From the NCBI GenBank assembly GCA_047639325.1, contig JBLINN010000001.1, forward strand, positions 1 to 59,639: a stretch of DNA of 59,639 bases, in the 5' to 3' direction. The notes beneath the pieces were generated by a model. That model worked only from the letters and a program-made list of their open reading frames with translations. It searched no databases and had not been told where the DNA came from. The position numbers and the translations under genes were made by a program. Source of the DNA: Paracoccaceae bacterium (GTDB lineage: Bacteria; Pseudomonadota; Alphaproteobacteria; Rhodobacterales; Rhodobacteraceae). Positions 9,979 to 59,268 of the stretch are shown piece after piece (the first letter of the stretch is position 1; every line of letters begins with the position of its first letter).

Positions 9979-9998
9979 CCTGAACGATCAGGCGAAAA

Positions 9999-10022
9999 CG
10001 CCGGGCAGAACACTGCCCGGCG
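9999..10022. terminator. Hairpin between convergent ald and sulfotransferase genes
   Basis: CGCCGGGCAG-aaca-CTGCCCGGCG, a perfect 10-bp stem. Confidence 0.5.
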
Positions 10023-36641: not shown

Positions 36642-37403
36642 TCAGTCAACCTTGGTGACCCGCGCAACAAAACTGTATCCGACCCCGTGGATTGTGTTGA
36701 TGACCTCAGGATCCGAAGCGGCGTGGCTCAGCTTTTTGCGCAGGCGCATGACATGGACGTCAATTGTGCGATCACCGGCAAAACTTGCCCGACCGCGCGC
36801 CGCGTCAAGCAGTTGATCGCGGGTGTAGACGGTGTTGGGATGCGCGGTGAAAAGCTGCAAAAGCTCAAACTCGCTGGTGGTCAGGGCCACATGGTCACCG
36901 GTATCGGCCGCGCTCAGCGACCGCTCGGCGGTGTTGAGGATCCAGTTGCCAAACTGAAAGCTGGGCGGGCGCGATTGTTCGGGCCTGGTATCCGCCGCCC
37001 GCGTGCGGCGCAGGATGGTTCGGATACGCGCCACCAACTCGCGCGGTTCAAACGGTTTCACCATGTAGTCATCGGCGCCAAATTCCAGCCCGACCACCCG
37101 GTCAAATGTCTCGTCCCGCCCCGAAAGCACCAGAATCGGCAGGTTGGATTCGGCGCGCAGATCGCGGGTGATATCAAGGCCACTTTTGCCCGGCAGGCCG
37201 ATATCAAGGATGCACAGATCAACGTTTTCGCGTGCCAGAATACCTTGCATTTCCCGCCCGTCCGACGCGCACAAGACCCGGTATTCCTGTTTTTCAAGAT
37301 AGCGCTTGAGGAACGATGTGATTTGTGGATCATCATCGACAACAAGGATCAGTTCTTTGTCCAGCGCGTTGTCCCCCAACAAATCAGAATCGCTGTTGGC
37401 CAT
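36642..37403 (-). CDS. OmpR-family response regulator
   Basis: REC (LVVDDD, ILDIGLPGKSG, KPF) plus a winged-helix C-terminus (TIDVHVMRLRKKL...GVGYSF). Confidence 0.85.
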   Translation of the reverse strand: MANSDSDLLGDNALDKELILVVDDDPQITSFLKRYLEKQEYRVLCASDGREMQGILARENVDLCILDIGLPGKSGLDITRDLRAESNLPILVLSGRDETFDRVVGLEFGADDYMVKPFEPRELVARIRTILRRTRAADTRPEQSRPPSFQFGNWILNTAERSLSAADTGDHVALTTSEFELLQLFTAHPNTVYTRDQLLDAARGRASFAGDRTIDVHVMRLRKKLSHAASDPEVINTIHGVGYSFVARVTKVD

Positions 37404-37512
37404 TCTAGCGGGTGCCGGGGCCTTTGCACCCCGAAATTCGAAAAGTCCCGGTCAAAGATGGAAAACCCAACCGGGCTCGCATAGGATAAGTATCAGAAAA
37501 GAAAGGTCCGAC

Positions 37513-39756
37513 GTGCTGCACGAGCCATCCAAACCCCGGGGAAAACGGCGCCTGCGCACAATGCCGATTGCGTTGCTCAGCGGATCCGTTTTGATGCTGA
37601 TCCTGACATTGATGATGGGGCTAAGTTACGAAACTTCGACCCGGTTTCGTCAGATCGAAGAAGGCTGGCAGGACTATACCAAAGACGCCGACCCGCGCGG
37701 GATTTGGATATCGGATATTCGCGGCTATTTTGGCTATGGCGGCATGATCCATAACTTCAAAAATTACGTCCTGCGCCGGGATCAAAAATACGCCCGCACC
37801 CTGCGCATCCAGACCGATCTGTTGCGAAAAGCCATTGGGGCCTATCAGAATGCCGGCCCCAGCCCGCTTGAACAGAAAGCGCTGATCCGTATCCACGGCG
37901 TGGTCGAGGAATATGCACAGCAGATCGACAAGATTGCCCTTGGCATCCGGCAGGGGTTATCAGCCGAGCAGATTGACGCGATTGTGCGGGTCGAGGATGC
38001 CGATGCGCTAAGGGCTTTGGCACTGTTGGAACGCAACTGGCGCGATCAGCGACAGCGCAACCTGAACGACATTGTCGCGGCTTTGTCCGAAGGCGAAACC
38101 CTGGTCCGCTATCTGACGGGGGCCATGGTATTGCTAACGGTTCTGGTTGGTTTGCTGGCCCTGCTGTTTTCCATTCTTGTCGGCGGTTCTTTGCGATCCA
38201 ACGCCGCCCAGATCCGCGAATTGAAGGCCCGCAAACAAGCCGAGGAAGAAGAACGCAAGCTGGCCTGGGTGGTGCAACAAAGCCCGGCCTCGATCCTGAT
38301 TACCGATACGCGCGGTAAAATCGAATTCGTGAACCGCAAGCTGCTGGAAATGACCGGTTACAGCGAATCCGAATTGGTCGGCCATTCGCCCAGCCTGCTG
38401 AAATCCGGGCACACGCCCGAGGCCGCCTATCGCGATATCTGGGCGCGGCTTCGCGAAGGGCATCCTTGGTCGGGCGTGTTCAAGAACCTCCGCAAGGATG
38501 GCAGCCACTACTGGGCCTCGACACAGCTGCTGCCGCTGTTGGATCAGGACAACAATATCACCAACTATATTGGCGTCGGCGAAGATATCAGTGAAAAAAT
38601 CCGCGTGGACGAACAGATCGCGCAGGTGCAAAAGATGGAGGCCGTGGGCATTCTGGCAGGCTCGGTTGCGCATGATTTCAACAATGTTCTTATGACCATC
38701 ATCGGCAATACCGAATTGATAAAGCTAGAGGTTGATGATCTGGCGGATAGCGCGGAAATCGCGGCATCTGTGGACCAAATCGAAATCGCCTCGCGCCGGG
38801 TCCGCGCCTTGATCCAGCAGTTGCTGACTTTTGCCCGCCAGCAACCGGGGCAGCCGCAGCGCCTGGATCTGCTGCAAGCGATCGAAGAGGTACTGGAACT
38901 GATCCGCGTGTCCACCCCGCCAAGGGTACAGATTGATCTGATTGCCAGCGATCAGGCATTGGCGACAGATATCGACCCCACCGCGTTTTTCCAGATTATC
39001 ATGAACCTGTGCCACAATGCGGTCGAAGCGATTGGCGACCGGGGCGGGGCGATTACCCTGCAACTGGGGCAGATTGCACCGGGGGGCGATGGCGGGCTGG
39101 ATACCCTGCCCAAAGCGGCAATTGGCAGCCTATCCATCACCATCCATGACGACGGCCCGGGCATTCCGCTGGATCTGCAAAACAAGGTGTTCGAGCCGTT
39201 CTTTTCCACCAAACCCGTGGGCAAGGGCACCGGCCTGGGGTTGGCGATTGTGCGCAACTGGGTGGAAGAGGCCGAAGGCCGGGTGACGTTGCAAAGTTCG
39301 CGCGCAACGGGGACGACGTTTACTTTGGTGTTCCCGCAATTCGAAATGCTGGACAGCGCGGTTGCGGTTCCCGATCAGCCGCCACGCGGTCAAGAACACA
39401 TTCTGCTGGTCGATGATGAAGAGGCGTTGCTGTACACTATTCGCCGGATGATGGCGCGGCTGGGCTATCGGGTCGAGGCTTTTTCCGATCCCGCGCTGGC
39501 GTTGCAGGCGTTCCGCATCAATCCGCAAAGCTATGATCTGGTGGCCACGGACATGATAATGCCCGAGATGAGCGGTGACGAATTGATCGTCGCCATCCGC
39601 GATATTCGTCCCGATGTTCCGGTCATGGTAATCAGTTCGTTTCACGCCACGGGCAGTTTCCCGCCGGGGTTTGAGGATGTCCGCAAGGTTGCAAAACCGG
39701 TTAATCTTGCCGGGTTGGCGATGGCGTTGCGGCAGGTGATTGACGGCACAGATTGA
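37513..39756 (+). CDS. Hybrid sensor histidine kinase (TM/sensor region, PAS, HisKA, HATPase, REC)
   Basis: PAS (ILITDTRGKIEFVNRKLLEMTGYSESELVGHSP), H-box GSVAHDFNNVL, G2 GTGLGLAIV, REC (ILLVDDEE...ATDMIMPEMSG...KP). Start is GTG 37513 or ATG 37561. Confidence 0.85.
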   Translation: MLHEPSKPRGKRRLRTMPIALLSGSVLMLILTLMMGLSYETSTRFRQIEEGWQDYTKDADPRGIWISDIRGYFGYGGMIHNFKNYVLRRDQKYARTLRIQTDLLRKAIGAYQNAGPSPLEQKALIRIHGVVEEYAQQIDKIALGIRQGLSAEQIDAIVRVEDADALRALALLERNWRDQRQRNLNDIVAALSEGETLVRYLTGAMVLLTVLVGLLALLFSILVGGSLRSNAAQIRELKARKQAEEEERKLAWVVQQSPASILITDTRGKIEFVNRKLLEMTGYSESELVGHSPSLLKSGHTPEAAYRDIWARLREGHPWSGVFKNLRKDGSHYWASTQLLPLLDQDNNITNYIGVGEDISEKIRVDEQIAQVQKMEAVGILAGSVAHDFNNVLMTIIGNTELIKLEVDDLADSAEIAASVDQIEIASRRVRALIQQLLTFARQQPGQPQRLDLLQAIEEVLELIRVSTPPRVQIDLIASDQALATDIDPTAFFQIIMNLCHNAVEAIGDRGGAITLQLGQIAPGGDGGLDTLPKAAIGSLSITIHDDGPGIPLDLQNKVFEPFFSTKPVGKGTGLGLAIVRNWVEEAEGRVTLQSSRATGTTFTLVFPQFEMLDSAVAVPDQPPRGQEHILLVDDEEALLYTIRRMMARLGYRVEAFSDPALALQAFRINPQSYDLVATDMIMPEMSGDELIVAIRDIRPDVPVMVISSFHATGSFPPGFEDVRKVAKPVNLAGLAMALRQVIDGTD

Positions 39757-39765
39757 TCCGGGCCC

Positions 39766-41163
39766 TCAGGTGCCGAATTTTCTGATCCCCGACGGCCCCG
39801 TTTCCAGATGTCCGGTTTTCCCCTGCCCCACCAGCGCCTCGGCCACGCGCTGCGCGGTGTCGCCCGCGCCGCTAAGACAGTTGGCGACCGAGACTCCTCG
39901 CAGAAAGTTGCCCGTGACAAACAGGCCGGGAACGCGGTTGGCTAGGTTTTCCAGCACGTCCACCCGGGCGGTATGCCCCAGTTCATATTGCGGCAGGCCC
40001 AGCGCCCAACGGCGGGCCCGCTGTATCACTGGCACGCCTTTGATCCCCAAAAGTTCGGCCAATTCGCGATGCACCTTGGCGATCAGCGTGGTGTCATCAA
40101 CCGTGGCCAGTTCCGGGTTACGCGCCCCGCCAGCATAGGCCGAAATCGCCACGTGTCCGTCGGGCGCGCGGCCTTGGTACATAGTGGACAGGAATTGCGC
40201 GCCCGAAATGATCCGGCTTGGATCCTTGGTGGACAAAAACCCCAGCCCATCCAGCGGATGCGCCACCTGATCGCGCCGATAGCCCAGGAATACCACGTTG
40301 ACCGGCGGGGCCATGATACTGCCCGCAGCCGTTGCCGCATCCATATCAAGCGGTTCCAGTAAACCGGCGGCCACATGCGGCTGCACCGCCAGCACCACGG
40401 CGCGGGCCTGGACCCTGCCCTGGCTGGTTTTCACGTCGAACCCTTGCGCGGTTTTGCCAATGCCCAGCACCACCACCCCGGTCTGCACCCGCGCGCCAAG
40501 TCGCTGCGCCAGACGTCCCGGAATGGTGCCGATCCCGCCCTGCCACGAATACAGATGCCGCCCCGGTTCGCTGCCTTTGCGCGCCTTCAGGATGCCCCGG
40601 ATGATCGACCCATGGGTCTGTTCCATCTCGGCTAGCCGGGCAAACGCGCCATTGATCGACAGCTTTCTGGAATCGCCCATAAACAGCCCCGCCGCCATCG
40701 GGTCGATGATCTTGTCGGCGAATTCCCGGCCAAACCGACGGGTGGTAAAGGCGTGAATGCTTTCTTCGGCGTCGTCGGTTTTGCGCGGCCGCAGCCCTTC
40801 CAGCAACAGCGACAGGCGGGCCTTTGGCGACAGGTAATTCGACAGGAAAAAACCCGCCGGATGAATGGAAATCCCGCTGAGCCGCCCCTGATCGCGCAGG
40901 TAACGCCGCCGGACATTGGGGCCAAGATCGGCGGCGCTGTCCAACAGGCCAAGCCCCGCAAGATGATCCACCGCACCCGGCACCGAGCCGTTGAACGTGG
41001 TTGGCCCGTGTTCCATCAGAAACCCGTCGATGCGTTCGGAAATCGCGTTACCGCCCGGCGTCACCTGACGCTCCAGCACCTGAACATCCAGGCCGCGCTG
41101 CATCAGCCCGTGCGCGGTTGCCAGCCCGGAAATGCCGCCGCCGATAACCACCACATCCCGCAT
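39766..41163 (-). CDS. HemY-type FAD-dependent protoporphyrinogen/coproporphyrinogen oxidase-like protein
   Basis: DVVVIGGGISGLATAHGL dinucleotide fold and collinear HemY-like blocks (...FLSTMYQGRAPDGHVAISAYAGGARN..., ...GLFVTGNFLRGVSVANCL). The ATG overlaps the upstream stop (TGATG). Confidence 0.7.
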   Translation of the reverse strand: MRDVVVIGGGISGLATAHGLMQRGLDVQVLERQVTPGGNAISERIDGFLMEHGPTTFNGSVPGAVDHLAGLGLLDSAADLGPNVRRRYLRDQGRLSGISIHPAGFFLSNYLSPKARLSLLLEGLRPRKTDDAEESIHAFTTRRFGREFADKIIDPMAAGLFMGDSRKLSINGAFARLAEMEQTHGSIIRGILKARKGSEPGRHLYSWQGGIGTIPGRLAQRLGARVQTGVVVLGIGKTAQGFDVKTSQGRVQARAVVLAVQPHVAAGLLEPLDMDAATAAGSIMAPPVNVVFLGYRRDQVAHPLDGLGFLSTKDPSRIISGAQFLSTMYQGRAPDGHVAISAYAGGARNPELATVDDTTLIAKVHRELAELLGIKGVPVIQRARRWALGLPQYELGHTARVDVLENLANRVPGLFVTGNFLRGVSVANCLSGAGDTAQRVAEALVGQGKTGHLETGPSGIRKFGT

Positions 41164-42446
41164 CAATCACCCCCCTGCATGGCGCGCACAAAGGCGGGTG
41201 GGCCTGCGTCGCCAAAGCGACGTTTGGCCAGCTCTGTCAGGTCATCGCGTGTCACTTCGGTTCGACCTTGGGCGCGCGCATGGTCCTCGGCGCGCCGCCG
41301 CACCATGCGGCGCACAAAACCGGGCACGCGGGCGACATGCGCCTCGGCGTCATCAGACCATCGCATCGCGCCCGCGTCGGGCATCATCGGCGTGATCACC
41401 GCGCCGCCACTGGGCTGATAGGTGCACAGGCTGTCCTCGCCCATCATGTTGCCATTGGCCGCCAGCGGACGGGCACGGCAGCCGCCGCACAGCTTTTGAT
41501 ATTCGCAAACCCCACAGCGCCCTTCCAGCTTGGGCGCGCGCAGCGCGTTCAGCACCGGGGCGTCGTTCCAGATGTCCTGAAACGACTGATCCTTTAGCGA
41601 CCCGGCAGAATTTCCCATGTAAGGGCATGGGGTTACGTCGCCATTGGGTGTCACCCGCGCATAGCGCGTCGCGGCAATACACCCGCCTGCATCATAGCCA
41701 TGGGCGGCTGTTATCGGCCAATCCGGGTCCATCTCGATGGCGATACGTTTAAAATGAGGCGCACATTTGGCCCGCACCATCAGGCGTTTTTCGTCCCGCG
41801 CCGCCGTGGCCACGCGGCGCAAAACCAGGTCGTATTTTTCTGCTGAAATGCCCGAATATTTCTCACCTCGTCCGGTGCAGACCATGAAAAACACGTTCAA
41901 CACCATCGCCCCCGCCTCGCGGGCAAAGGCGACCATATCGTCGACCTCATCCGCTGTTTCGTCGGTGGCCGAGAAATGGATTTGGAACGCCATTCCGGCA
42001 TCCTTGCAGGCATCAATTCCCGCCATGGTCCGCACCCAAGCGCCTTTCAGGCCGCGAAACGCGTCATGCACATCCCGGTCCAGCGAATCCACCGATATGC
42101 CCATGCCCGCCACCCCGGCGGCTTGCAGCGCTTTGACCCGCGCAGGCGTCAGCGACATACCGTTGGTGCCCACCACCACCATCAGCCCCAGCCCGTTGGC
42201 ATGTTCCGCCAGTTCCGGCAGATCCGGGCGCAAGGTTGGTTCGCCGCCAGTCAGCACCACCATCGCCTCGGGGCCGGTTTCAGCGATTTCGCCCAACACG
42301 CGTTTGATGTCATCGGTCGACAACTCGTCCTGCCCGCCGTCTTTCAAGTGGCGTGCGTCCAGATAGCAGTGGGCGCAGGCAAGGTTGCACCTTTCTGTCA
42401 GGTTCAGCGCCACAAGATAGGGGGCGTCTGCCTTGCCCTGGGGCAT
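41163..42446 (-). CDS. Radical-SAM/SPASM enzyme (NirJ/AhbC/AhbD-like) with a C-terminal PCP_red-like domain
   Basis: CNLACAHCY (CX3CX2C). SPASM-type Cys cluster ...GRCGVCEYQKLCGGCRARP... C-terminus WSDDAEAHVARVPGFVRRMVRRRAEDHARAQGRTEVT. Confidence 0.8.
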   Translation of the reverse strand: MPQGKADAPYLVALNLTERCNLACAHCYLDARHLKDGGQDELSTDDIKRVLGEIAETGPEAMVVLTGGEPTLRPDLPELAEHANGLGLMVVVGTNGMSLTPARVKALQAAGVAGMGISVDSLDRDVHDAFRGLKGAWVRTMAGIDACKDAGMAFQIHFSATDETADEVDDMVAFAREAGAMVLNVFFMVCTGRGEKYSGISAEKYDLVLRRVATAARDEKRLMVRAKCAPHFKRIAIEMDPDWPITAAHGYDAGGCIAATRYARVTPNGDVTPCPYMGNSAGSLKDQSFQDIWNDAPVLNALRAPKLEGRCGVCEYQKLCGGCRARPLAANGNMMGEDSLCTYQPSGGAVITPMMPDAGAMRWSDDAEAHVARVPGFVRRMVRRRAEDHARAQGRTEVTRDDLTELAKRRFGDAGPPAFVRAMQGGD

Positions 42447-44095
42447 CACTCTTTTCCCGGCTCAACCGGGCACATGGCCATGCGTGACGCGGCAAAAGCC
42501 TCGTCCTCGATCGTGCTATCCACCACGCTAAGCCCCCGGTCGCGGGCGAAATTCTCGATTGACGTCCGGACCTGATCTCGAAACGCTTCGGGCACTCGTT
42601 GCAGACGCGCCAGCGGGGCGGTGCGCCAGATGATTTCGGCCCTTTCGGCCCGGATCGCGGGTTCCAGTGCGGCCTCGGCCATGAAGGGTTCGATATGCAC
42701 CCGTTCCACCGTTTCCCCGGCGTCCCGGCGCGCGGATTTCTCGGCCCGCAGGCCGATGTTTTCGCGCACCTGTTCGTCGCTGATCGTGTCCAGCATGGCG
42801 CGCGCGTCTTCGGCCCATTCAAGCCGCTCAAACGTCTGCTCGACCGCGCCTTTGCCACTACCCCCGGGCATCATCTTGGACATGATATCCTGCACAAACC
42901 GCGTGGTGATAAACGTGTGCCCCTGCTTTTGCGCCGCCCGGATCACCCCGGTACGGGCGATGCCGCGAACAAAATCCGGGGCGCGGTTGATCATCGCTGT
43001 GGCCTCGTCCGACCACATGATAGTCTCTTCCGCGACCACGTCCGAGGGCGGGAAATGTTCGGCCTGACCGACCCAGACATGGCAACCCACCATGCGCAGC
43101 AGGTTTTCGGTATTGCCGCCGATATCCAGCCCATCATCCGCATGCACCCCGGTTTTACCGATCACTAACAGGCTGGCCTTGTGTTCATCCACGTATTTCT
43201 TGATCGCCTGATACGGTTTGCCTGCCACTAGCGCGCACACAATTTCGCTGCCTGCATCCTTGGCCACGGTTTGCGCCACGTTCAGATGCGCCTGATAGAT
43301 TTTGGCAATGCCGTCATCAATCAGCTCTTCGTGCAGCTGTTCCTGTTGCTTGAAGCGGAACACTTTGCCCGCCTCTTCGTCCAGAACGGTCGAGATTTTG
43401 TTGAAGGCAACATAATGATAAAACGGGTCATAGGCGGCCACAACATGCACCGGCACGTCCAGCTTTTTGCCGATATCCAGCGCCGTCACCAGCGCGCCAA
43501 AGGATTTGGGAGACCCATCCATACCAACCACAATTGGCCCATCACCAATGGAAAGGCGGCGATCCTTGGCGACAAACACATCCATATTGGCGCGCCGCAC
43601 CACCCGCTCGCACACCGTGCCAATGGTTGACCCGGCAACCGCCCCCAGCCCCAGCGCACCCATGAACAAAACGTCATGTTCGCCTGTGGCCATGGCCTGG
43701 GTCACGCAGGTATAGTTCTTGCCTTCGGGTGACAGGCGCTCAAAGCGTACATCGGCCTTTTTCGCCACAGCGGCAGCGGCGTCGTGATAGCTGTCGGAAA
43801 TCAGCCCCAGCCCCATGCCGATCAGGTCTTCGTGCACGTCGCGCTGCTTTTCCATCTCGCTTTCGCGCTGATATTGCTCTGGCAACCCGCCTTCCATCTG
43901 CCGAAACCGCTGATCGTGCAGCTTGGCGGCATAGGCGTGGATACCGGTGATGTGACCACTGGCCAGACGCACTGCTTGACGCATGGCGTTATTGGCGTAA
44001 TCGGACTGGTCCAGCGCCACCAATATCCGCGTCATAACTGCCGGAGCCGTGGCCGCCGCGTCCGTTGTTCCATCATCAATTGCCAGATTGGTCAT
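42446..44095 (-). CDS. Tandem universal-stress-protein (USP) domains fused to three PCP_red-like repeats
   Basis: Two USP folds (…VLFMGALGLGAVAGSTIGTVCERVVRRA…, …LLVIGKTGVHADDGLDIGGNTENLLRMV…). Then three repeats of the form xW..eA...l.r.P.FVR.....r...A...G...v. Confidence 0.6.
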   Translation of the reverse strand: MTNLAIDDGTTDAAATAPAVMTRILVALDQSDYANNAMRQAVRLASGHITGIHAYAAKLHDQRFRQMEGGLPEQYQRESEMEKQRDVHEDLIGMGLGLISDSYHDAAAAVAKKADVRFERLSPEGKNYTCVTQAMATGEHDVLFMGALGLGAVAGSTIGTVCERVVRRANMDVFVAKDRRLSIGDGPIVVGMDGSPKSFGALVTALDIGKKLDVPVHVVAAYDPFYHYVAFNKISTVLDEEAGKVFRFKQQEQLHEELIDDGIAKIYQAHLNVAQTVAKDAGSEIVCALVAGKPYQAIKKYVDEHKASLLVIGKTGVHADDGLDIGGNTENLLRMVGCHVWVGQAEHFPPSDVVAEETIMWSDEATAMINRAPDFVRGIARTGVIRAAQKQGHTFITTRFVQDIMSKMMPGGSGKGAVEQTFERLEWAEDARAMLDTISDEQVRENIGLRAEKSARRDAGETVERVHIEPFMAEAALEPAIRAERAEIIWRTAPLARLQRVPEAFRDQVRTSIENFARDRGLSVVDSTIEDEAFAASRMAMCPVEPGKE

Positions 44096-44101
44096 GTTCT
44101 C

Positions 44102-44971
44102 TTATCCATCTGTTGCACAGCGAAACCCGACGAATTCCGCGTAAGTGTTTGTATAGTCACACATTCTGTTGCTTGCGACGGTCATGTGGGGCCGCCCATT
44201 CCAGCTGTTGCCCTTGATATAGGCGCAGGGTTCGCCGGGGATGCTTGCGTCAGCCTGGTCCGGAGGCAGGCATATTTCCGGCAGCACGCCCCCATTGGCC
44301 GCCGTAAGTTCCGTCAAAAGCGCGCGCATTTCAGGCGTTGCCTGTTGGTCCAGAACCACGTTGTCGCGGCAGACACCGGCGCGCGCGGTGCGGGTATCTG
44401 CCACCCATTCGGAAACATTGCCCGCCAGGCCGCGCACGCCGTAGGGGCTGATATCATCCGCGTGATCCGTCACCGGAACTGGACCCGTGCCGGTCAAATG
44501 GGCGCGGGTCAGGTCGGCGTCATCGCCCCAGGGGTAAATCCGCCCATCCGTGCCACGCGCCGCCTTTTCCCATTCGACTTCGGTCGGCAAGCGTTTGCCT
44601 GCCCAGGCGCAAAAGCTGGTGGCATCGTCATGCAGAACCCCGGTGACCGGCTGATCAGGGTGGTTGAATTCCGGGTCATCGGCAAAGGCCGCCGAGGTGT
44701 GGCCGGTGGCGGCCGTAAACTTGGCGTATTGCGCGTTTGTCACTTCGAACCGGTCAATGGAAAACCCAGCGACGCTGTAGGGCATCGGGCCATAAAGCCC
44801 AGTGTAAGAAACATATCCCAAAGTGGCCTGCCCGGCGGGGATTTTCACCATGTCGCCGTGGGCAGAGGGCCAAACCCCCAATGCCGCCGCCCCAAAGGCG
44901 ACAGCCCCGGCACCAGCCACAGCCACCGCCACCGCCACCGCCGCGGATATGGCGATCAGGCGAATAGCCAA
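44102..44971 (-). CDS. FGE-sulfatase (SUMF1/NirV-like) domain protein, membrane-anchored
   Basis: FSIDRFEVTNAQYAKF, LPTEVEWEKAARG, GNVSEWV, KGNSW...VGFRCA. The Ala/Val-rich anchor is encoded by a GCCACC-type repeat. TTG start is uncertain. Confidence 0.7.
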   Translation of the reverse strand: MAIRLIAISAAVAVAVAVAGAGAVAFGAAALGVWPSAHGDMVKIPAGQATLGYVSYTGLYGPMPYSVAGFSIDRFEVTNAQYAKFTAATGHTSAAFADDPEFNHPDQPVTGVLHDDATSFCAWAGKRLPTEVEWEKAARGTDGRIYPWGDDADLTRAHLTGTGPVPVTDHADDISPYGVRGLAGNVSEWVADTRTARAGVCRDNVVLDQQATPEMRALLTELTAANGGVLPEICLPPDQADASIPGEPCAYIKGNSWNGRPHMTVASNRMCDYTNTYAEFVGFRCATDG

Positions 44972-45063
44972 TACCCCAGCAGCAACAAAACCACGGCCAC
45001 GTTGACCAGGGCACCCGCCAAAACAAACGCATCAAACGTATTGATTTTACGATGTTTCAGCAT
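44956..45063 (-). CDS. Possible 35-aa single-TM peptide
   Basis: MLKHRKINTFDAFVLAGALVNVAVVLLLLGYWLFA fills the gap between the cupredoxin-like and FGE-like genes. Below the ORF-track cutoff. Speculative. Confidence 0.2.
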   Translation of the reverse strand: MLKHRKINTFDAFVLAGALVNVAVVLLLLGYWLFA

Positions 45064-45086
45064 GGGCTACCCTTTGGGTCTGTTGC

Positions 45087-45827
45087 TTAGTAGGACAGGT
45101 CCTTGGTCACGGCGCCACCGGCATCGACGGTGATTTCACCGACCTCGACCTCGCCCAGGAACCCGTGCCACATCATCACTTCGTAGGTGCCCGCCGGGAT
45201 ACCATCGATCGAGAAACCGCCAGCCTCGTCCACCACCGAATAATAGGGGTTCTTGGCGACAAACACGAAGCTGTGCATGAAATCATGGGCGTCGCATTCG
45301 ACTTTCATGCCGTTGCCCCGGCGAAGTTTCACCTTTTTGGTGACCGTATCGCCCTTGCTGGGCTGCGATACATTCATCACCGTGCGACGCGCCTTGCCGA
45401 TCAGTTCGTAGGTATGGATGTTGTGCAGGGTCATGTCTGAATTATTCGCCGTCAGCTCGCCCCCATTGGCCATCACGCCCAAAACCGTCGAAAATTCACA
45501 GCCTTCCTGATCGATGGTCAGGTTCATTTGTTCCGCGTCAAAGGCCTTGCCTTCGCCAACCTCGTTCAGGAACACCACCGCGTTCATCAGCTTGCCGTCA
45601 CCGTTGATTTCCACAAACGGCACCTCGCGCGATCCCTCGCCGCAGATTTCCGGGTCTTTTGAAATGGTATAGCTGCGGGTGTCGGCCTCGGCAGCGCCGG
45701 CGGCCACGGTTCCGGCAAAGCTGCCACCATTGCTGACATCAACTTCTTTGTATCCCTTGGCGCTGGCCGTGGTGGCCAGACCAAGCAACGCCAGTGTCAT
45801 GGCGGATTTTGCAAGCGTATACTTCAT
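45087..45827 (-). CDS. Secreted cupredoxin-like protein with a C-terminal CarboxypepD_reg-like domain
   Basis: Signal peptide MKYTLAKSAMTLALLGLATTASA. Candidate type-1 Cu ligands are HNIH ... C-DA-H-DF-M, the amicyanin-type C-X2-H-X2-M spacing. C-terminal GGFSIDGIPAGTYEV. Confidence 0.5.
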   Translation of the reverse strand: MKYTLAKSAMTLALLGLATTASAKGYKEVDVSNGGSFAGTVAAGAAEADTRSYTISKDPEICGEGSREVPFVEINGDGKLMNAVVFLNEVGEGKAFDAEQMNLTIDQEGCEFSTVLGVMANGGELTANNSDMTLHNIHTYELIGKARRTVMNVSQPSKGDTVTKKVKLRRGNGMKVECDAHDFMHSFVFVAKNPYYSVVDEAGGFSIDGIPAGTYEVMMWHGFLGEVEVGEITVDAGGAVTKDLSY

Positions 45828-45854
45828 AGGATTTCCTTTCATTATGGGGGCCGT

Positions 45855-48065
45855 TCAGGCGACCAGCAGAGTTTGATCCGGCGTCTGCTCGGGGGCCTGC
45901 GTTTGAAAGATTTCAGCCAGCGCATCGATTGCCACCAACCACTGGTTCTTGCGGGCCTCGTCGTTTAGCAGGTCCAACAGCCGCGCAGCACCGGCATGTG
46001 GGGCGTATTCCCCCAGCAGCTTACCGATGTCGCGGCGATAGATACCGTCATTGCGCGCCGCAAATTCGACCAGCGCATCAACCCCGTCGTCACCACCAAG
46101 ACGCGCCAGCGCACGGGCGGCAGCGATGCCAGCCCCAAGGTAGCTGTCGTTCAGCGCACCGGTCAGCGCATCGCTGACCACATTACGCCGATCCAAGCTT
46201 CGGATCGCTTCGACCCGCACCAGCTGATCGTGATGACCGACAAGGGCGACCAGCAATTCGTCGATGGCGTCGCCGGGAAGAAAGCCAAACAGACGCGTCG
46301 CCAGCACCCGAATTTCCGAGTTTTCACTGTCCAGCAGACCCTTTGCCGTTTCAAACAGGCTGTCCGGCAAATGACCGCGTGAGTCGCCATGTTCGGCCAG
46401 CGAAAACAGCACTGCCTGCCGGGTTTCTTCGTCGATATCACTGTTCAGGGACGCGATCAGCGCCTCGGTAACCTCGTCCTGTACCACCTGCCCCAGCAAC
46501 CGCGCCGAAAACCGCTGAACATCCAGATACGGCGCCACTTCGGTGTCCCAGGACACTTTGCGCTTGGAAAACTTGCGGGTGTTGGTCATCGCCAGCAAGC
46601 GTTCCTGATCATCGTCCAAAATGATCTCTTGCAGCGGCGCTTTGGGTTGATCAGGCTCGTTGGCCATAATCGCGCGCAACGTCGATCCCGGCGCGGCATC
46701 TGCGGCCACCAATGGCAGGCTTTCATCAATCTCGCGGGCGATTTCCTCTAGCTCAGCCTGATCCGGCTCTGCTTTGGGCACCAGTTCGATCACCGGTTCA
46801 ACCTCTTCCACTTCTGGTTCTTCCGGCGGCAGCACCAATTCGCCTTTCAGCGCGATCAGCAGGCCGACACCCGCGTCATTTGGCCAGACGGGATCGTTTG
46901 CAGCGATATTGGCAAGGGTTGTCAGGCTGGACAGGCGCATTTGCCGGTTCGGGTCTGCGGCCACTTCCAACAAGGCGGGCACAGCGGTTTCCCCGGCTTT
47001 TTCAAGGGTTTCCAGCACGCCAATGCGGAATTCATGGGGGATTTTTGCGTTGCCCAGCACATGCATAAAACCTTTGGCAACCACCGGGCCTTTTAGGGCA
47101 AACAGCGCCAGCGCTGCGTGTCTGGCGGCAGTTGGGTCGCCCTTAACGGTGTTTTTCACCGCGTCCACCTGTTCCTTTTCCCGGAAAGTCTCGGGGTGGG
47201 CGGCGATGATTTTGAACACTTCGACGCGCACTTTGGGGTCCGCATCGGCAATCAGGTCGCGCAGAACCGGCAAGTGGGCCACCCCGTGATGGTGCACAGC
47301 AGCGGCGCGCACGACGGCGTCGGGGTCTTGAAACATCTCGACCAAACGCGCATCGTCAGACGCCAGGTTTTCCAGCGCAAGGGCGCGGATCGCGGCGGAT
47401 TTATCGGCCAGCATGTCGCCCAGCAGCGCGCTGAGATGCGGGTTATCCGACTGCCCCACGGCCCGGGCAACGCGCCGGACAAGGCGAGGATCGCCGCTTT
47501 CGTAAAAGACGCCCAGCGCCTGCGCCCCATCGTGGCCCATTTTGGCCAAAGCGCAAAACGCCGGTTCGCTAACATCCTGGCCCAATTCGTCGGCCATCGC
47601 GGTCAGAATTTCGGAAACCGCCTCTTCAACCTGAAAGTCGCCCAAAGCCTTGATCGAGGTCATCTGGATATCGTCCCAGGCGTCCCAACCATCGGTATAA
47701 AAGGCCTCTTCGTCCCAGGCGAATTGATCTTCTGAACGTGACACGGCCAAGGCGCGCAACAGCGGCACAACCGGTTGGTGGCGCATCGCCACAAGGGCCT
47801 TGATGGCCGCTTTCTTGACATCAGATTCCGGGTCGCCAACCAAGTTTTCCATCAGCTTGTCGGCTGTCTCTGGGTCCTGAATATCGGCCAGCGCCATCGC
47901 GGCATCGGTGCGCACATCCGGATCTTCATCCAGCAGCGCGGCGACCAGATCGCTGGTTGCTTTTGGCCCGCCGATGACCCCCAAAGCCCGGGCAGCCGCA
48001 CAGCGATGAACGTCTACCTCGCCCTTCAGGATTTCGCTAAGTCTTTCTGCTGATTTGATTTTCAT
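45855..48065 (-). CDS. Large HEAT-repeat (PBS-lyase-type) protein
   Basis: Repeated ...RxAAxALGxIGxxxAvxxLxxaLxDxDpxVRxxAaxAL... units throughout, with an acidic central linker. Start is ATG 48065 or GTG 48074. Confidence 0.8.
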   Translation of the reverse strand: MKIKSAERLSEILKGEVDVHRCAAARALGVIGGPKATSDLVAALLDEDPDVRTDAAMALADIQDPETADKLMENLVGDPESDVKKAAIKALVAMRHQPVVPLLRALAVSRSEDQFAWDEEAFYTDGWDAWDDIQMTSIKALGDFQVEEAVSEILTAMADELGQDVSEPAFCALAKMGHDGAQALGVFYESGDPRLVRRVARAVGQSDNPHLSALLGDMLADKSAAIRALALENLASDDARLVEMFQDPDAVVRAAAVHHHGVAHLPVLRDLIADADPKVRVEVFKIIAAHPETFREKEQVDAVKNTVKGDPTAARHAALALFALKGPVVAKGFMHVLGNAKIPHEFRIGVLETLEKAGETAVPALLEVAADPNRQMRLSSLTTLANIAANDPVWPNDAGVGLLIALKGELVLPPEEPEVEEVEPVIELVPKAEPDQAELEEIAREIDESLPLVAADAAPGSTLRAIMANEPDQPKAPLQEIILDDDQERLLAMTNTRKFSKRKVSWDTEVAPYLDVQRFSARLLGQVVQDEVTEALIASLNSDIDEETRQAVLFSLAEHGDSRGHLPDSLFETAKGLLDSENSEIRVLATRLFGFLPGDAIDELLVALVGHHDQLVRVEAIRSLDRRNVVSDALTGALNDSYLGAGIAAARALARLGGDDGVDALVEFAARNDGIYRRDIGKLLGEYAPHAGAARLLDLLNDEARKNQWLVAIDALAEIFQTQAPEQTPDQTLLVA

Positions 48066-48118
48066 CTGACTCACTCATGGTTTGATGCGCTAAACTATCA
48101 ACCCCGTCAGGCACGGCG

Positions 48119-48132
48119 TTGACCCAAGTCAA
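48119..48132 (-). promoter_or_regulatory. FNR/CRP-family (FnrL/Dnr-type) box upstream of the HEAT-repeat gene
   Basis: TTGACCCAAGTCAA is a perfect TTGAC-N4-GTCAA palindrome, centred about 60 nt upstream of ATG 48065. Confidence 0.55.
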
Positions 48133-48137
48133 GGGCA

Positions 48138-48173
48138 GATCACCGGCCAGCGGATTCGCTCTGGCCGGTGATC
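48138..48173 (-). terminator. 13-bp perfect inverted repeat after the Mo-subunit gene
   Basis: GATCACCGGCCAG-N10-CTGGCCGGTGATC lies between stop 48219 and the FNR-type box. Weak T-tract, so it may be an attenuator or processing site. Confidence 0.4.
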
Positions 48174-48218
48174 ATTTCGACCGTTCCGGGGCGCCCAAAC
48201 CGGACGCCCCGGCATTTA

Positions 48219-50897
48219 TCAAATAACGATGTCGCGCGGTGCAAAGGACATCGACCGGAAGGTGTGCTTGTAAGGCGACTCACCAATCTTGGTGACCTTC
48301 GCGATACCCATCTTGAAGTTGTAGTTACCGCTGATCCAATCGACGACCCGTCCGGCCAAAGCGTTGGCAGGCTGGCTGGCATGCAAGAAGTCCATATACA
48401 TGACCCCCGGCTTAACCGCCCGCGTCACCATCGCCACCGCCGTTACCGCAGCTTCGCTAAGTTCGACGTTGCCGTTGGCCATCTGACCGGCGAACGAATA
48501 ATCCGATCCTTCGACCCCCAGCGTGGTGTCCTTCAACGAAGGCACGCGGTCATTGGACAGCAGGACCATATCGCCACTTTCGATACCGCGGGCTGCGGCA
48601 TCTTCGGTGTTGATCTCAACCCAGTTATCCGGCCAGCGCTGGACAATGTAGGGCCGCCGCGTGTCGTCGAAACCAGACTGCCAGCGTTCGTTGGCACGAC
48701 CGGACGTACACCACAGTTCGTCGCCTTTTGGCTTCATCCATTCCCAATAATCCGAGAACAGATCCCAAGGCGATTTCTGGATGTTGCACTTGCCGGTCTG
48801 CGAATTGAAATGCGTCAACTTCTTGTTGTACATGTTCAACGCAGTCGGCCCGCCTGGCATCAGCTTACGTGTGGTGTCATGCAGACGAACGGTGCCTTCC
48901 AGCGTTCCATCCGGGTGCATATAGACCGGGCCCTGAATACCGTTGGTTCCCATTTCGCGGAACTTCTGGTGCAGGGTCTTGCCCTCGCGATGCGCTGCCA
49001 CTTTGACCATGTTAAAGTCTTTGCGGCTGCCTCGGGTGAACTTGGCCAGTTCCTCGGCAACATCGTTAGAGTTTTCCCAATCAAAGCCCTCAAAGCCCAT
49101 CTTTTTGGCCAGCTGGGCAATGATCCACCAATCCGGTTTCGCTTCTCCCGGTGCATCGTAGAACTTTTGATACAGCCGGATACGACGTTCGCCGTTGGCC
49201 CGCAGGAAATCCTCTTCGCCCCAGGTTGCCGCCGGAAAGATGATGTCCGCAAACTGGTTGCCGATTGGATCGACCAGATAGATATCCTGGTTGACAACCA
49301 CCATGCCGCCACTATCAACCCGTGCTTTCAGGGTCTCAAGGATCTTTTCGCGGTTGATCGACTGGATCTGATGCGGGTTGCCACGGGTCAGTTCATGGAA
49401 CCGCTGCGACAATTGCTGAGATCCCAACATCGACTGGATCCAGGTGGTGCCGATGACATGTGCCATACGGGTGTGGCCCGCCATGGTCCAGGTATCCGTG
49501 TCCAGCGCCCGACGACGACGACCCGGCAGCTTCATCGGCGATTTGTTGCGCGGATAACCCCCGCCACGTACACCGCCACGCTGGTGACCACCCGCCCGGC
49601 CAATAACCTGACCAGGACGTCCGCCTGCGCCGACAGTGATCCCAAGTGCGGAAATCGCCTGGGTATTGCCGGTGTTGTTGGACCAATAGAAGCCTTTTTC
49701 GATCATGATCGAAGTTTTTGGCCGACTGCCATCATCTTTTGGCTTGGCCATCATCTCGGCTGCCAGCTGAATTTTCGCAGCATCCACGCCCGAAACTTCG
49801 GCCGCGGCTTCCAGCTTGAATTCATCCTGTGCCAGCAACCACTTGGACCAGTCTTCAAACCCTTTGGTCTGGAATTTGCCCCAGGTTGTCCGCCACTGCC
49901 AAGGGGTGTTCCGTGTGCCCTGACCAAAGCCCGAGGAAGACCCCCACTGGTCATTAACCCACTTTTCGATCCACTCTTTGTCCTGCCAGCCGTTCTCGAC
50001 GATGATCCGCGCAATGGCGTTGACCACCAACAGGTCTGTGCCGGGTGTCACGTCCAGCCACAGCCCGCCGTTCTGTTCGGCGTAAGCCACACCAGCGGTC
50101 TTGCGAGGCACCATAAAGATGGCCTTTTGACCATTCTGGATGCCCTTCATGATCCACTGCGTGAACAGGATCGTCTTGGTCTCGTAAGGGTCCGTGCCGC
50201 AGATCAACAGGGTTTCGGCGTTCATCCAGTCTTCGTAGGCCGGGCCGAAATTGTCGAACCCTGCATCCCGGAAACCGGGTGTCGAAGACACGTCAGACGG
50301 GGTGTCGTGGAAGGTGAAGTTTGCCGTGTTGATTGACCGCAAGGCGTATTTGGTGATCGCGTAGGTGTTCTCCATATACTGATAAGAGAACGTCTTGACG
50401 CCATAGGCATTGTGACCGTGCTTTTTGATCACGTATTTGCCGATTTCGGCGGCAATATCCAACGCAAAGTCCCATGGAACCGGTTGCAGGATGCCATAGA
50501 TACGCATCATCGGCGACTTCAGACGGTCCCGTGTCGGGGTTTCCGGATTATAGCACTTCTGCGCGATACAGCCGCCACGAAGCGAGCTGTCGCCGTCGGT
50601 ATTCACAAACTCGGTGTCTTTGTCGGGGATGATCACGACGTGGTGCGGCTCGCCTTCGTGCAGCACCACGTTGTGCTGGTTTGGGGCAACCCATGGGCCC
50701 AAAGGCGCCACCGGGAAATCTTCGCCAAATGCGTTTTCTTCGGCCTTCTGGCCACCGCGCTTGTCGCCTTTGACCGGCCAGCGATAGACTTTGTAACCAC
50801 AGGCAACGATGCAATAATCGCAGGCGGTGGTGATCACCTCGGCATCTGCCGGTGGCAGGGGCCCGTGTTGATCGGGGATGTAATACGGAGTTGACAT
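48219..50897 (-). CDS. Molybdopterin oxidoreductase large subunit, arsenite-oxidase/iodate-reductase (AioA/IdrA) family
   Basis: N-terminal 3Fe-4S motif TACDYCIVACGYKVYRW (C-X2-C-X3-C). Collinear with AioA as I recall it (PDK...SSLRGG, GGHQRG, NGERRIRLYQKF.D.PG, FDWEN). No own signal peptide. GGAGAGG Shine-Dalgarno. Confidence 0.88.
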   Translation of the reverse strand: MSTPYYIPDQHGPLPPADAEVITTACDYCIVACGYKVYRWPVKGDKRGGQKAEENAFGEDFPVAPLGPWVAPNQHNVVLHEGEPHHVVIIPDKDTEFVNTDGDSSLRGGCIAQKCYNPETPTRDRLKSPMMRIYGILQPVPWDFALDIAAEIGKYVIKKHGHNAYGVKTFSYQYMENTYAITKYALRSINTANFTFHDTPSDVSSTPGFRDAGFDNFGPAYEDWMNAETLLICGTDPYETKTILFTQWIMKGIQNGQKAIFMVPRKTAGVAYAEQNGGLWLDVTPGTDLLVVNAIARIIVENGWQDKEWIEKWVNDQWGSSSGFGQGTRNTPWQWRTTWGKFQTKGFEDWSKWLLAQDEFKLEAAAEVSGVDAAKIQLAAEMMAKPKDDGSRPKTSIMIEKGFYWSNNTGNTQAISALGITVGAGGRPGQVIGRAGGHQRGGVRGGGYPRNKSPMKLPGRRRRALDTDTWTMAGHTRMAHVIGTTWIQSMLGSQQLSQRFHELTRGNPHQIQSINREKILETLKARVDSGGMVVVNQDIYLVDPIGNQFADIIFPAATWGEEDFLRANGERRIRLYQKFYDAPGEAKPDWWIIAQLAKKMGFEGFDWENSNDVAEELAKFTRGSRKDFNMVKVAAHREGKTLHQKFREMGTNGIQGPVYMHPDGTLEGTVRLHDTTRKLMPGGPTALNMYNKKLTHFNSQTGKCNIQKSPWDLFSDYWEWMKPKGDELWCTSGRANERWQSGFDDTRRPYIVQRWPDNWVEINTEDAAARGIESGDMVLLSNDRVPSLKDTTLGVEGSDYSFAGQMANGNVELSEAAVTAVAMVTRAVKPGVMYMDFLHASQPANALAGRVVDWISGNYNFKMGIAKVTKIGESPYKHTFRSMSFAPRDIVI

Positions 50898-50909
50898 GTT
50901 TTTCCTCTC

Positions 50910-51491
50910 CTAACCTTGAAGGTTGTCGTGACGGCCGTAGATCAGCCCGAAAATTCCGGTGGCGTAGATATCGTCACCATCCAGTTCCAGCAGGATCTGC
51001 GGCAGGCTTTGATAGGCTTGCCCTGAAATCAGGATTCCGTGCCGTGTCAGGTCATATGTCGACAGGTGCAACGGGCAGGCGCCCAGGGATTTCGTGTCGG
51101 CCTTGTAGCTGTCAAACAACGTGCCACCCTGGTGGGTGCAGGCGTAATTGAACGCGACCACGTCCTGTTCCGGGCCGATGCCGCCACCGGCGCGAACGCC
51201 CATTTTGACGATCATGTTGTCGCTGTATTCGCCTTCGTCCGGGTAGTTGAAGTCAAACGGAACATCCGTTTTCAGATCGGACAGTTTGCCAATCAGCTTG
51301 CGCGGATATTCGGTGATTTGCGCCGGCACTTGCTTGGCCTGCGCCGTGCCCGGATCAAGGGTGATCATGATGGTCGTGGTGACCCCTGCCCCGATCAGGA
51401 ATTTACGGCGGGATACCAGGCACTTGTGCCCAACGGCCTTGGCGGCTTCCTTGCGGGTCATCCCCGTTTCGGCTTTTACATCTTGTGACAT
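50910..51491 (-). CDS. TAT-exported Rieske [2Fe-2S] small subunit (AioB/IdrB-like)
   Basis: Twin-arginine SRRKFLIGAG. Rieske boxes C-T-H-QGG and C-P-L-H. Start at ATG 51491 after AAGGA. Confidence 0.85.
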   Translation of the reverse strand: MSQDVKAETGMTRKEAAKAVGHKCLVSRRKFLIGAGVTTTIMITLDPGTAQAKQVPAQITEYPRKLIGKLSDLKTDVPFDFNYPDEGEYSDNMIVKMGVRAGGGIGPEQDVVAFNYACTHQGGTLFDSYKADTKSLGACPLHLSTYDLTRHGILISGQAYQSLPQILLELDGDDIYATGIFGLIYGRHDNLQG

Positions 51492-51511
51492 ATTTTTTCC
51501 TTTTCCAATGC

Positions 51512-52654: not shown

Positions 52655-52669
52655 CTTTCCTCTCCCGTC

Positions 52670-53791: not shown

Positions 53792-53887
53792 TGATTTCCC
53801 TTTCTTGTTAAAAATGTCTCCGGCTCGGAAATCGCGAAACGGATTGGTGTCCTGCGGGCAAAGTCGCAACCCCACCCCCCAAATTCA

Positions 53888-59139: not shown

Positions 59140-59268
59140 CTATTGCGGCATCAGATCAGCGCCGACAGGCAGACCCTGCGCTTGCATGATCGACTTATCC
59201 ATTAAGTAGAAAAACGCCGCCCAAACGACCAACGCCCCCACAAAAACCACCAAACTGCGTCCTGTCAT
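59140..59268 (-). CDS. Possible 42-aa single-TM peptide
   Basis: MTGRSLVVFVGALVVWAAFFYLMDKSIMQAQGLPVGADLMPQ. Its stop is 9 nt before the bd-like ATG. Below the ORF-track cutoff. Confidence 0.3.
   Translation of the reverse strand: MTGRSLVVFVGALVVWAAFFYLMDKSIMQAQGLPVGADLMPQ

Follow-up and report, generated by a model that had tools for sequence, protein, structure and literature searches.

A candidate tetrapyrrole cassette that travels with a bd-like/cytochrome c/EB_dh module across bacterial phyla

Haem biosynthesis is considered essentially solved, with three routes. We consider here a three-gene cassette on the minus strand at positions 39766-44095 of a 59,639-nucleotide stretch of DNA from a Paracoccaceae bacterium (GenBank assembly GCA_047639325.1, contig JBLINN010000001.1; the whole stretch is called the window below), parts of which have counterparts in several described systems. 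In reading order, the trio encodes a protein with two USP domains and three PCP_red-like repeats, a radical S-adenosylmethionine (SAM) enzyme with a SPASM region and a further PCP_red repeat, and a HemY-type porphyrinogen oxidase of the kind that binds flavin adenine dinucleotide (FAD). The second of these resembles AhbD, a member of the tetrapyrrole enzyme group acting on propionate side chains, which is the haem b synthase of the sirohaem-dependent pathway and replaces ChdC in some coproporphyrin-route organisms among the Gram-positive bacteria (PMC13564367). The third is related to PgoX, the oxidase that stands between HemN/CgdH and the ferrochelatase PpfC in the classical route, and the PCP_red repeats are related to the C-terminal domain (PF08369) of BchB/ChlB of the dark-operative protochlorophyllide reductase (DPOR). 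As regards genomic behaviour, the nearest parallels are cyoE/ctaB, for haem o synthase, and nirJ with its partners, for haem d1, which are haem genes co-inherited with one respiratory enzyme across distant lineages.

The cassette shares something with each of these systems and differs from each of them. The overall chemistry proposed for it is that of HemN/CgdH, PgoX and PpfC, and 11 related loci have a PpfC-like hemH close to the cassette or to its island; however, its decarboxylase would be an AhbD-family SPASM enzyme rather than a HemN-type one, it has the additional USP-PCP_red protein, and it is tied to genomes with a module of bd-like, cytochrome c and EB_dh proteins (one locus, L035, has none within 10 kb). 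As with cyoE/ctaB and the nirJ set, it is inherited with a respiratory unit, but it is unrelated in sequence to CyoE/CtaB and scores only 164 bits on the NirJ model, and whereas the products of those systems are modified haems, its own would be protohaem or a variant thereof. The genes present, their families and conserved catalytic motifs, their coupling and their synteny across phyla, all set out below, lead us to favour, with a probability of roughly 0.55, the reading that the trio is a cytoplasmic, dedicated late porphyrin/haem branch inherited with, and serving, the bd-like/cytochrome c/EB_dh module. A literature search covering PF08369/PCP_red, the combination of AhbD, HemY, EB_dh and bd-like proteins, iodate reductase with radical SAM, a preprint on the bd superfamily and Endoriftia found no description of such a cassette or of haem genes linked to bd-like proteins; what is new is that enzyme families known in themselves stand in an arrangement not described before, with a novel domain fusion and a new proposed client.

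The three cassette proteins and their families

The trio constitutes the final three genes of a long co-oriented minus-strand run that extends from 59130 down to 39766: the USP-PCP_red gene (42446-44095; 549 amino acids) comes first, the radical-SAM gene (41163-42449; 428 amino acids) second and the HemY gene (39766-41166; 466 amino acids) last. An earlier note on this DNA, made from its letters and open reading frames (ORFs), had placed three such genes here, coupled in translation, and both points hold: Pfam and NCBIfam return the claimed domain content, and at each of the two junctions the TGA stop of the upstream gene overlaps the ATG of the next as TGATG. These ATG codons, at 42446 for the radical-SAM gene and 41163 for HemY, are likely to be the true starts, as judged from the junction sequences, rather than the GTG or TTG of the longest ORFs. 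Only 6 nucleotides separate the USP ATG from the stop of the FGE-sulfatase gene upstream, and over 39000-48500, which takes in the cassette and the genes upstream of it, promoter-like and terminator-like sites are no more frequent than in shuffled sequence. When 13 proteins of the operon were searched by tblastn against 84 related loci with flanks of 10 kb, the USP, radical-SAM and HemY genes were found collinear and on one strand in 68 of them, a conservation of order and orientation that is far beyond chance. Of the 16 remaining loci, 13 end within about 330 nucleotides of the last trio gene and one (L042) has about 1.5 kb left, room for a partial HemY; the real exceptions are only L054, with the USP gene alone, and L081, where the radical-SAM gene was not detected.

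By the measure of a curated model and of its active-site residues, the HemY protein is a canonical member of its family, as the earlier note had supposed. It matches Pfam Amino_oxidase (E 3.6e-54) and, over its full length, the protoporphyrinogen oxidase model TIGR00562 with 259 bits against a curated equivalog cut-off of 97.85. The GXGXXG motif for dinucleotide binding of FAD stands at its N-terminus (VVVIGGGISGLA), with G9, G11 and G14 at least 97% conserved. Among solved structures it comes closest to the Myxococcus xanthus protoporphyrinogen oxidase 2IVD (220 bits, E 5e-64, homology over the full length), followed by the tobacco protoporphyrinogen oxidase PPO2 (1SEZ, 160 bits) and Bacillus subtilis HemY, i.e., CgoX (148 bits), although the gap between the Myxococcus PgoX and the Bacillus CgoX may reflect phylogeny alone. 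Residues R88, L311 and Y344, at least 97% conserved among 65 family members, align with R98, L356 and F392 of the tobacco enzyme, which are substrate contacts in the 1SEZ structure; the position of tobacco L372 is occupied by Q324 in the window protein. In sum, full-length homology, the FAD motif, the Arg/Leu/aromatic contacts and passage of TIGR00562 are common to the cassette HemY and PgoX (2IVD, 1SEZ), while the former differs in being an accessory copy, coupled to the gene of an O2-sensitive radical-SAM enzyme inside a respiratory cluster, with a predicted substrate.

The radical-SAM protein (Pfam Radical_SAM, E 4e-27; SPASM, E 3e-9) was placed by its scores on curated hidden Markov models (HMMs), used in place of a tree against AhbC, AhbD, NirJ, HemN and anSME. 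The best NCBIfam scores are those of NirJ2 (299 bits), AhbD (285) and TIGR04053 (252), followed by NirJ (164), AhbC (156), PqqE (123) and the peptide maturases (at most 120, with WgkB at 119.5), every one of them under its curated cut-off. On these model scores, the protein groups with the AhbD/NirJ haem enzymes and not with the peptide-modifying SPASM enzymes; hence, the NirJ/Ahb-like type proposed for it stands, and the clustering with peptide-modifying enzymes that would have spoken against that proposal is not seen, such enzymes reaching at most 123 bits as opposed to about 300 for the haem families. A tblastn search of the protein against plasmids returned only relatives of NirJ, PqqE, TIGR04053 and TIGR04347, at 29-35% identity, and the PDB holds no close solved structure, the best being SkfB and PqqE at 71 bits. 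The CX3CX2C cluster motif (CNLACAHC; 42366-42389, minus strand) has C21, C25 and C28 at least 97% conserved in 70 family members, in which C257, C275, C312, C315, C321, C324 and C342 of the SPASM region (41424-41681, minus strand; Pfam SPASM at residues 257-315) are likewise conserved, a pattern from which two auxiliary Fe-S clusters are likely.

Thus, the enzyme has the CX3CX2C core, the SPASM cysteines for two auxiliary clusters and, across its forms, 285-317 bits in common with AhbD, and yet it is not to be filed as AhbD on present sequence grounds: its 285 bits on TIGR04545 fall short of the 500-bit equivalog cut-off, and an Ahb context was not seen, in that no ahbA/B/C or sirohaem genes occur among the Pfam-scanned recurrent neighbour families of the 84 loci (for which no dedicated query was run). 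It differs from AhbD further in its one to three added PCP_red repeats, and in having as its partners, in proteobacteria of the protoporphyrin route, a PgoX-like HemY and a USP-PCP_red protein. Identity with NirJ was rejected, the 164 bits on TIGR04051 being set against a cut-off of 515 and no nir genes (nirS or the nirF/nirDLGH context) being present in the window.

The USP-PCP_red protein combines two Usp domains (PF00582) with PCP_red repeats, of which Pfam recognises two and an HMM built from the repeats three (residues 359-408, 425-474 and 488-536), each scoring 76-89 bits; as helical hairpins, the third taken to residue 541, they occupy 42473-43021 on the minus strand. The radical-SAM protein has one more at residues 362-410 (41220-41366, minus strand; PF08369 E 1.9e-14; 78 bits on the repeat HMM). 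Both proteins surpass the Pfam gathering score of 32.5, with 53.9 bits for the radical-SAM protein and 68 for the USP protein; in the long forms described below, the scores rise to 102-144 bits with 3-5 repeats, amounting to 4-8 repeats per system. The repeats of the USP protein match positions 449-526 of the BchB NCBIfam models; the cassette repeats in general match PF08369 and the C-terminal 50-60 positions of these models, and their homology to BchB has E-values of 1e-14 to 1e-19. Unlike in BchB/ChlB, however, the domain stands here apart from any nitrogenase-like core, in several copies, and is joined to USP and radical-SAM domains. An AlphaFold model of the USP protein, of moderate confidence (pLDDT 68.8), has as its top Foldseek match the ATP-bound tandem USP TTHA0350 (E 7e-8), with Rv2623 also found, both over the tandem-USP part only, while the PCP_red repeats in this moderate-confidence model had no Foldseek match. 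The modelled tandem-USP part would thus fold like ATP-binding tandem USPs. The nucleotide motif G-2x-G-9x-G-[ST] is intact in the first USP domain (G146-T160) and degenerate in the second. Among 76 members of the family, 143 columns are at least 97% conserved, and many His and Cys residues are invariant; with its 3-5 PCP_red hairpins across forms, the protein would most plausibly serve as a scaffold, carrier or gate.

Distribution and the partner module

Homologues of the radical-SAM and USP proteins with at least 66% identity, among the matches listed (the top 120 clusters per search), come, where a taxon is named, almost entirely from marine Rhodobacteraceae/Paracoccaceae metagenome-assembled genomes (MAGs). 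At 50% identity clustering, the USP-PCP_red family accounts for 227 clusters with E 1e-30 or lower, and when each species was represented by a single genome, 429 genomes proved to contain relatives of the USP protein. Among the top 80 of these 429, all are alphaproteobacterial MAGs except one binned as Acidimicrobiia, no cultured carrier being identified, the groups including Paracoccaceae, Hyphomicrobiales, Rhodospirillaceae/Thalassospiraceae, Sneathiellales and Kiloniellales, and many of them come from oxygen-minimum zones and hydrothermal settings. A long-form subfamily, with a USP protein of about 730 amino acids (five repeats) and a radical-SAM protein of about 680 (three repeats), is found in Gallionella, Sideroxyarcus, Thiothrix, Acidiferrobacterales, Arenicellales, the tubeworm symbiont Ca. 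Endoriftia persephone and Acidobacteria. The USP protein of the Riftia symbiont is EGV50769. The enzyme classes in this subfamily are the same: 309-322 bits on the AhbD/NirJ2 models (309-317 for AhbD) and 214-240 bits on TIGR00562 for HemY. Clusters of the long form and those from oxygen-minimum zones have, immediately ahead of USP, a gene for a conserved protein of 65-85 amino acids with two transmembrane segments and the motif RLFGVxLIxLGxLNSxLSWRGG (L004, 6393-6632; L086, 6266-6469; L088 and L089, both 9747-10004); this protein matches no Pfam family and was not detected in the window.

In the window the module that accompanies the trio consists of a CydA-like (bd-like) membrane protein (57376-59130, minus strand), a cytochrome c (56243-57379, minus strand) and a protein with three cytochrome c domains and an EB_dh haem-b domain (53957-56233, minus strand; the EB_dh region matches TIGR03477 with 103 bits). 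Between it and the trio lies an Idr/Aio-like block. Among the alphaproteobacterial loci, 34 have the trio directly after an Idr-like block with HEAT, CarboxypepD_reg and sometimes FGE genes, 32 have it beside bd-like, cytochrome c and EB_dh genes without the molybdenum enzyme, and three show both contexts, as does the window. One Hyphomicrobiaceae locus (L083) has, ahead of the trio, an operon for a type II DMSO reductase, with alpha and beta subunits, a chaperone resembling NarJ and a gamma subunit of the EB_dh kind; a bd-like homologue lies upstream. In Endoriftia, Gallionella, Acidobacteria and two more genomes, it adjoins bd-like, cytochrome c and cytochrome c-EB_dh genes, sometimes with an added SCO1 or a NosZ-like beta-propeller, and Idr is never present. 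Trio and module thus occur together without the molybdenum enzyme in Alpha-, Beta- and Gammaproteobacteria and Acidobacteria, oxygen-minimum-zone loci included. In the reverse test, metagenomes were scanned with an alignment of bd-like proteins, which yielded 542 relatives, and 80 loci were retained; at least one trio gene was found in 22 of these 80 bd-like-centred loci, most of those long enough to judge. The Idr-type bd-like loci could not be judged in this way because their flanks reach 10 kb, whereas some 15 kb separate the bd-like start from the trio. In two loci with a split trio (L130, L144), the genes remain within the cluster. A distant bd-like subfamily (46-51% identity; L160-L170), with two bd-like genes separated by two FGE-sulfatase genes, has no trio.

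We conclude that what the trio is conserved with is the bd-like/cytochrome c/EB_dh module, plus the genes for the HEAT and CarboxypepD_reg proteins, and not the Idr-like enzyme or the peroxidases. This upholds the notion of an accessory unit attached to a respiratory operon, since the trio sits with the module across phyla. The earlier note had gone further in naming the bd-like protein, the EB_dh-like domain or the peroxidases as possible recipients of the product and in proposing that co-occurrence with bd-like or Aio/Idr-like genes be tested; the bd-like and EB_dh parts of these suggestions agree with what was found, in the reverse test as well as in the adjacency across phyla, whereas the peroxidases drop out, for the trio occurs without them in Gallionella, the Riftia symbiont and Acidobacteria, and so does the link to Aio/Idr, which is often absent. 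A cassette serving the Idr/Aio-like enzyme or the peroxidases was rejected since the trio occurs without them in many lineages, and Idr as a client in particular because, in addition, Idr works without the trio (PMC13455634).

Some observations on the module itself may be added. It attaches to varied periplasmic catalytic units, such as the Idr-like enzyme of the window, the NarGHJ-like type II DMSO reductase of L083 and the NosZ-like beta-propeller, the loci concerned being L083, L084, L086, L090, L144 and L150, with a cupredoxin domain accompanying the beta-propeller in L084; the module may act as a general hub for the delivery of electrons and not as an oxidase. The bd-like gene of the window has shortly upstream of it an ORF of 42 amino acids with a single transmembrane segment (59140-59268, minus strand; MTGRSLVVFVGALVVWAAFFYLMDKSIMQAQGLPVGADLMPQ), which may be a CydX-like small subunit, and similar small ORFs precede the bd-like gene also in L085 (5761-5913) and L088 (4675-4791).

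Clustering of the unexplained ORFs of the 84 loci, followed by Pfam scans of the recurrent neighbours, revealed a ferrochelatase gene, hemH (PF00762, 344 bits; TIGR00109, 263-276 bits). It adjoins the trio in six genome loci in three arrangements: divergent from the USP gene (L020, L057, L060), convergent with HemY (L025, L075) or in the order hemH-HEAT-trio (L035, a Rhizobiaceae MAG, where hemH, HEAT-USP-radical SAM-HemY and MoeA form an isolated unit among housekeeping genes). In five metagenome loci, whose bd-like proteins are 83-90% identical to that of the window, it stands 1.7 kb upstream of the bd-like gene, a position that in the window would be just beyond its end. The adjoining ferrochelatases score 90-97 bits, at full length, against protoporphyrin ferrochelatases and 45-56 bits against coproporphyrin ferrochelatases, and are by these scores probably protoporphyrin-type, i.e., PpfC-like. 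The statement that no ferrochelatase or ChdC accompanies the cassette is hence right for the window, where tblastn found neither, but not beyond it, given these 11 loci. Other genes of cofactor maturation at the same end of the cluster are SCO1/SenC and MoeA, in 7 loci each.

Proposed role and alternative explanations

That the cassette belongs to a tetrapyrrole pathway, as was first suggested from the letters of the window, is supported by the canonical HemY, the radical-SAM enzyme of the AhbD/NirJ group, the homology of PCP_red to BchB and the adjacency of hemH. We infer from this a scheme whose proposed elements are the substrates, the order of steps, the roles of PCP_red and USP and the nature of what is made, which would be protohaem or something close to it. 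The radical-SAM enzyme, with SAM and its Fe-S clusters, would carry out an oxygen-independent oxidative decarboxylation of propionate side chains, the likeliest substrate being coproporphyrinogen III; HemY would then oxidise the resulting porphyrinogen by six electrons to the porphyrin, and a protoporphyrin-type ferrochelatase, whose gene is next door in several relatives, would insert iron. The PCP_red hairpins—one on the radical-SAM enzyme, three on the USP protein—could be tetrapyrrole-handling or docking units, and the nucleotide-binding USP pair a scaffold or gate that passes reactive intermediates or product to the module. The simplest such scheme runs from coproporphyrinogen III over protoporphyrinogen IX and protoporphyrin IX to haem and would fit both the PgoX-like HemY and the PpfC-like hemH. 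Since this is the order of the classical route, both cassette enzymes would act consecutively with no ferrochelatase needed between them, and the greater closeness of HemY to the Myxococcus PgoX than to the Bacillus CgoX is what suggests such consecutive steps.

Alternatively, the trio might merely boost protohaem synthesis at low oxygen, by paralogous HemN-like decarboxylation and protoporphyrinogen oxidation, with no specific client or special product. We regard this as unlikely, though it is the most serious of the competing explanations: HemY is PgoX-like and the neighbouring hemH PpfC-like, the chemistry would yield ordinary protohaem, the islands do carry generic cofactor genes, as the paralogues of MoeA and SCO1 at this end of the operon show, and hemN paralogues adjoin the cbb3 oxidase genes in some proteobacteria. 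But a three-gene set with unique PCP_red fusions is linked to one type of module across phyla, and a large USP-PCP_red protein with its 143 near-invariant positions would be needless for a booster; this co-inheritance resembles that of cyoE, ctaAB and the nirJ set, and it is on this account that a dedicated role is favoured. Considerably less probable is a hybrid coproporphyrin-type route, in which HemY would act as CgoX, a ferrochelatase would make coprohaem, and the radical-SAM enzyme, as a true AhbD, would form haem b without oxygen. AhbD and NirJ2 are indeed the best radical-SAM models, and AhbD substitutes for ChdC in some organisms of the coproporphyrin route (PMC13564367); however, HemY is nearer to PgoX than to the Bacillus CgoX (220 versus 148 bits), the adjoining ferrochelatases match the protoporphyrin type about twice as well as the coproporphyrin type, the radical-SAM enzyme stays under the AhbD equivalog cut-off, and the two cassette enzymes would not act in consecutive steps. 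The order CgoX-ferrochelatase-AhbD, which is known from Gram-positive bacteria (PMC13564367), hence fits less well than the classical one.

The 4-8 PCP_red repeats per system and the many invariant His and Cys of the USP protein also bring to mind a system of haem chaperones, comparable to the HemN-like radical-SAM protein HemW for nitrate reductase, in which the two PCP_red proteins would carry finished haem to the bd-like and EB_dh apoproteins. Since the EB_dh domain is part of a multi-cytochrome c protein that is presumably Sec-exported, its haem b would need separate delivery; yet a canonical HemY with intact substrate residues would have no role in such a system, and the radical-SAM enzyme retains all its cluster cysteines, so that we think it improbable. 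The least credible explanation, to which we assign a very small chance, takes the trio out of tetrapyrrole metabolism altogether, with a SPASM peptide maturase and an amine-oxidase-type flavoenzyme modifying a small peptide or some other metabolite. SPASM enzymes often mature peptides, and small ORFs lie near the trio in some loci; against this, peptide-maturase models reach at most 120 bits where AhbD/NirJ2 reach about 300, the small ORFs encode hydrophobic proteins with one or two transmembrane segments that are not precursor-like, HemY passes the protoporphyrinogen oxidase equivalog, and PCP_red and the adjacent hemH point to tetrapyrroles. A system for ribosomally synthesised and post-translationally modified peptides was accordingly rejected, its maturase scores being low and the nearby small ORFs including no precursor-like peptide.

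Several points weigh against the reading of a dedicated branch serving the module. In three loci (L143, L133, L161) the 10 kb around the module contain no trio, L035 conversely has HEAT, trio and hemH with no bd-like module within the same distance, and L054 carries the USP gene alone. The radical-SAM enzyme scores about 300 bits where the AhbD/NirJ2 cut-offs are at 500, and a family score of this kind leaves its substrate predicted only; no literature was found on the function of PCP_red (PF08369), BchB included, and the cryo-EM paper on DPOR is silent on the C-terminal domain of BchB. The hosts presumably already own HemN/HemF and HemJ/HemG. Moreover, an O2-requiring HemY-type oxidase is coupled translationally to an O2-sensitive radical-SAM enzyme, which suggests microoxic operation or an alternative electron acceptor. 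The role and chemistry that we ascribe to the cassette are read from sequence and synteny.

The surrounding island and the significance of the cassette

Directly upstream of the trio lies the gene for an FGE-sulfatase-domain protein (44102-44971, minus strand; Pfam E 4e-41), a frequent though not constant neighbour that precedes the USP gene in many Idr-type loci. It is preceded by a secreted CarboxypepD_reg-like protein (45087-45842, minus strand), a near-constant member of the wider cluster; in Alphaproteobacteria, the Riftia symbiont and Acidobacteria its gene is a neighbour either of the trio or of the bd-like gene. The latter protein holds the sequence C-D-A-H-D-F-M-H, an amicyanin-type C-x2-H-x2-M loop, with LHNIH upstream of it, and from these motifs it may be a blue-copper (cupredoxin-like) protein, which would suit the SCO1/SenC copper-chaperone genes of the sister clusters L043, L085 and L088. 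The HEAT-repeat protein (PBS-lyase/NblB-like; 45855-48074, minus strand; HEAT_2 E 2e-42, with weak NblB and CpcE matches) is a frequent companion of the trio, found also in L085.

The Idr/Aio-like block comprises an AioA/IdrA-like molybdoenzyme (48219-50897), a Rieske subunit (50910-51515) and two di-haem peroxidases (51512-53875), all on the minus strand. As a whole (48219-53875) it has the gene content of an iodate reductase in the order P-P-B-A instead of idrABP1P2; its large subunit passes the arsenite-oxidase model TIGR02693 (429 bits versus 359), and the label Idr/Aio-like covers either. An enzyme of the idrABP1P2 type reduces iodate in related cultured Rhodobacteraceae (PMC11445184), and idrABP1P2 cloned from an alphaproteobacterial MAG works alone in Escherichia coli, reducing iodate (PMC13455634).

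Downstream, a PAS/hybrid histidine kinase gene (37306-39756, plus strand) converges on HemY, and the 9 nucleotides between the two stops leave no room for terminators. A homologous kinase with an OmpR-type response regulator follows HemY in 12 sister loci, and a kinase with a sigma-54 regulator does so in L085; the kinase of the window is likely to regulate the island. Elsewhere, the window carries genes for flagella, quorum sensing and housekeeping, and among its genes unrelated to the island are those for a Hint-domain protein (7143-8048), a DUF6638 protein (18532-19884; 769 bits) and a LuxI-type autoinducer synthase (21976-22680), all on the minus strand.

Since cassette and module travel together across phyla, the module may well depend on a haem supply of its own or on a special haem. 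The stronger form of the latter idea, namely that the cassette makes a new iron porphyrin, with side chains unlike those of protohaem, as an obligatory cofactor of the widespread bd-like/copper/cytochrome c complex, we hold only tentatively, as we do the tailoring and the modified haem suggested in the earlier note; on this view, the cassette would relate to the complex as cyoE/ctaAB do to the haem-copper oxidases. The complex is found in Alphaproteobacteria of oxygen-minimum zones, in iron- and sulfur-oxidising Beta- and Gammaproteobacteria (Gallionella, Thiothrix and the Riftia symbiont) and in Acidobacteria. For iodate respiration, the above observations mean that the cassette is no part of the Idr system itself. 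For the cytochrome bd-like proteins, which are frequent in oxygen-minimum zones, in symbionts from hydrothermal vents and in iron oxidisers, the cassette provides a handle, in that it predicts a special haem requirement of their complexes. If the proposed role is true, the cassette would represent a fourth way of accomplishing the terminal steps of haem synthesis, or else lead to a new type of haem.

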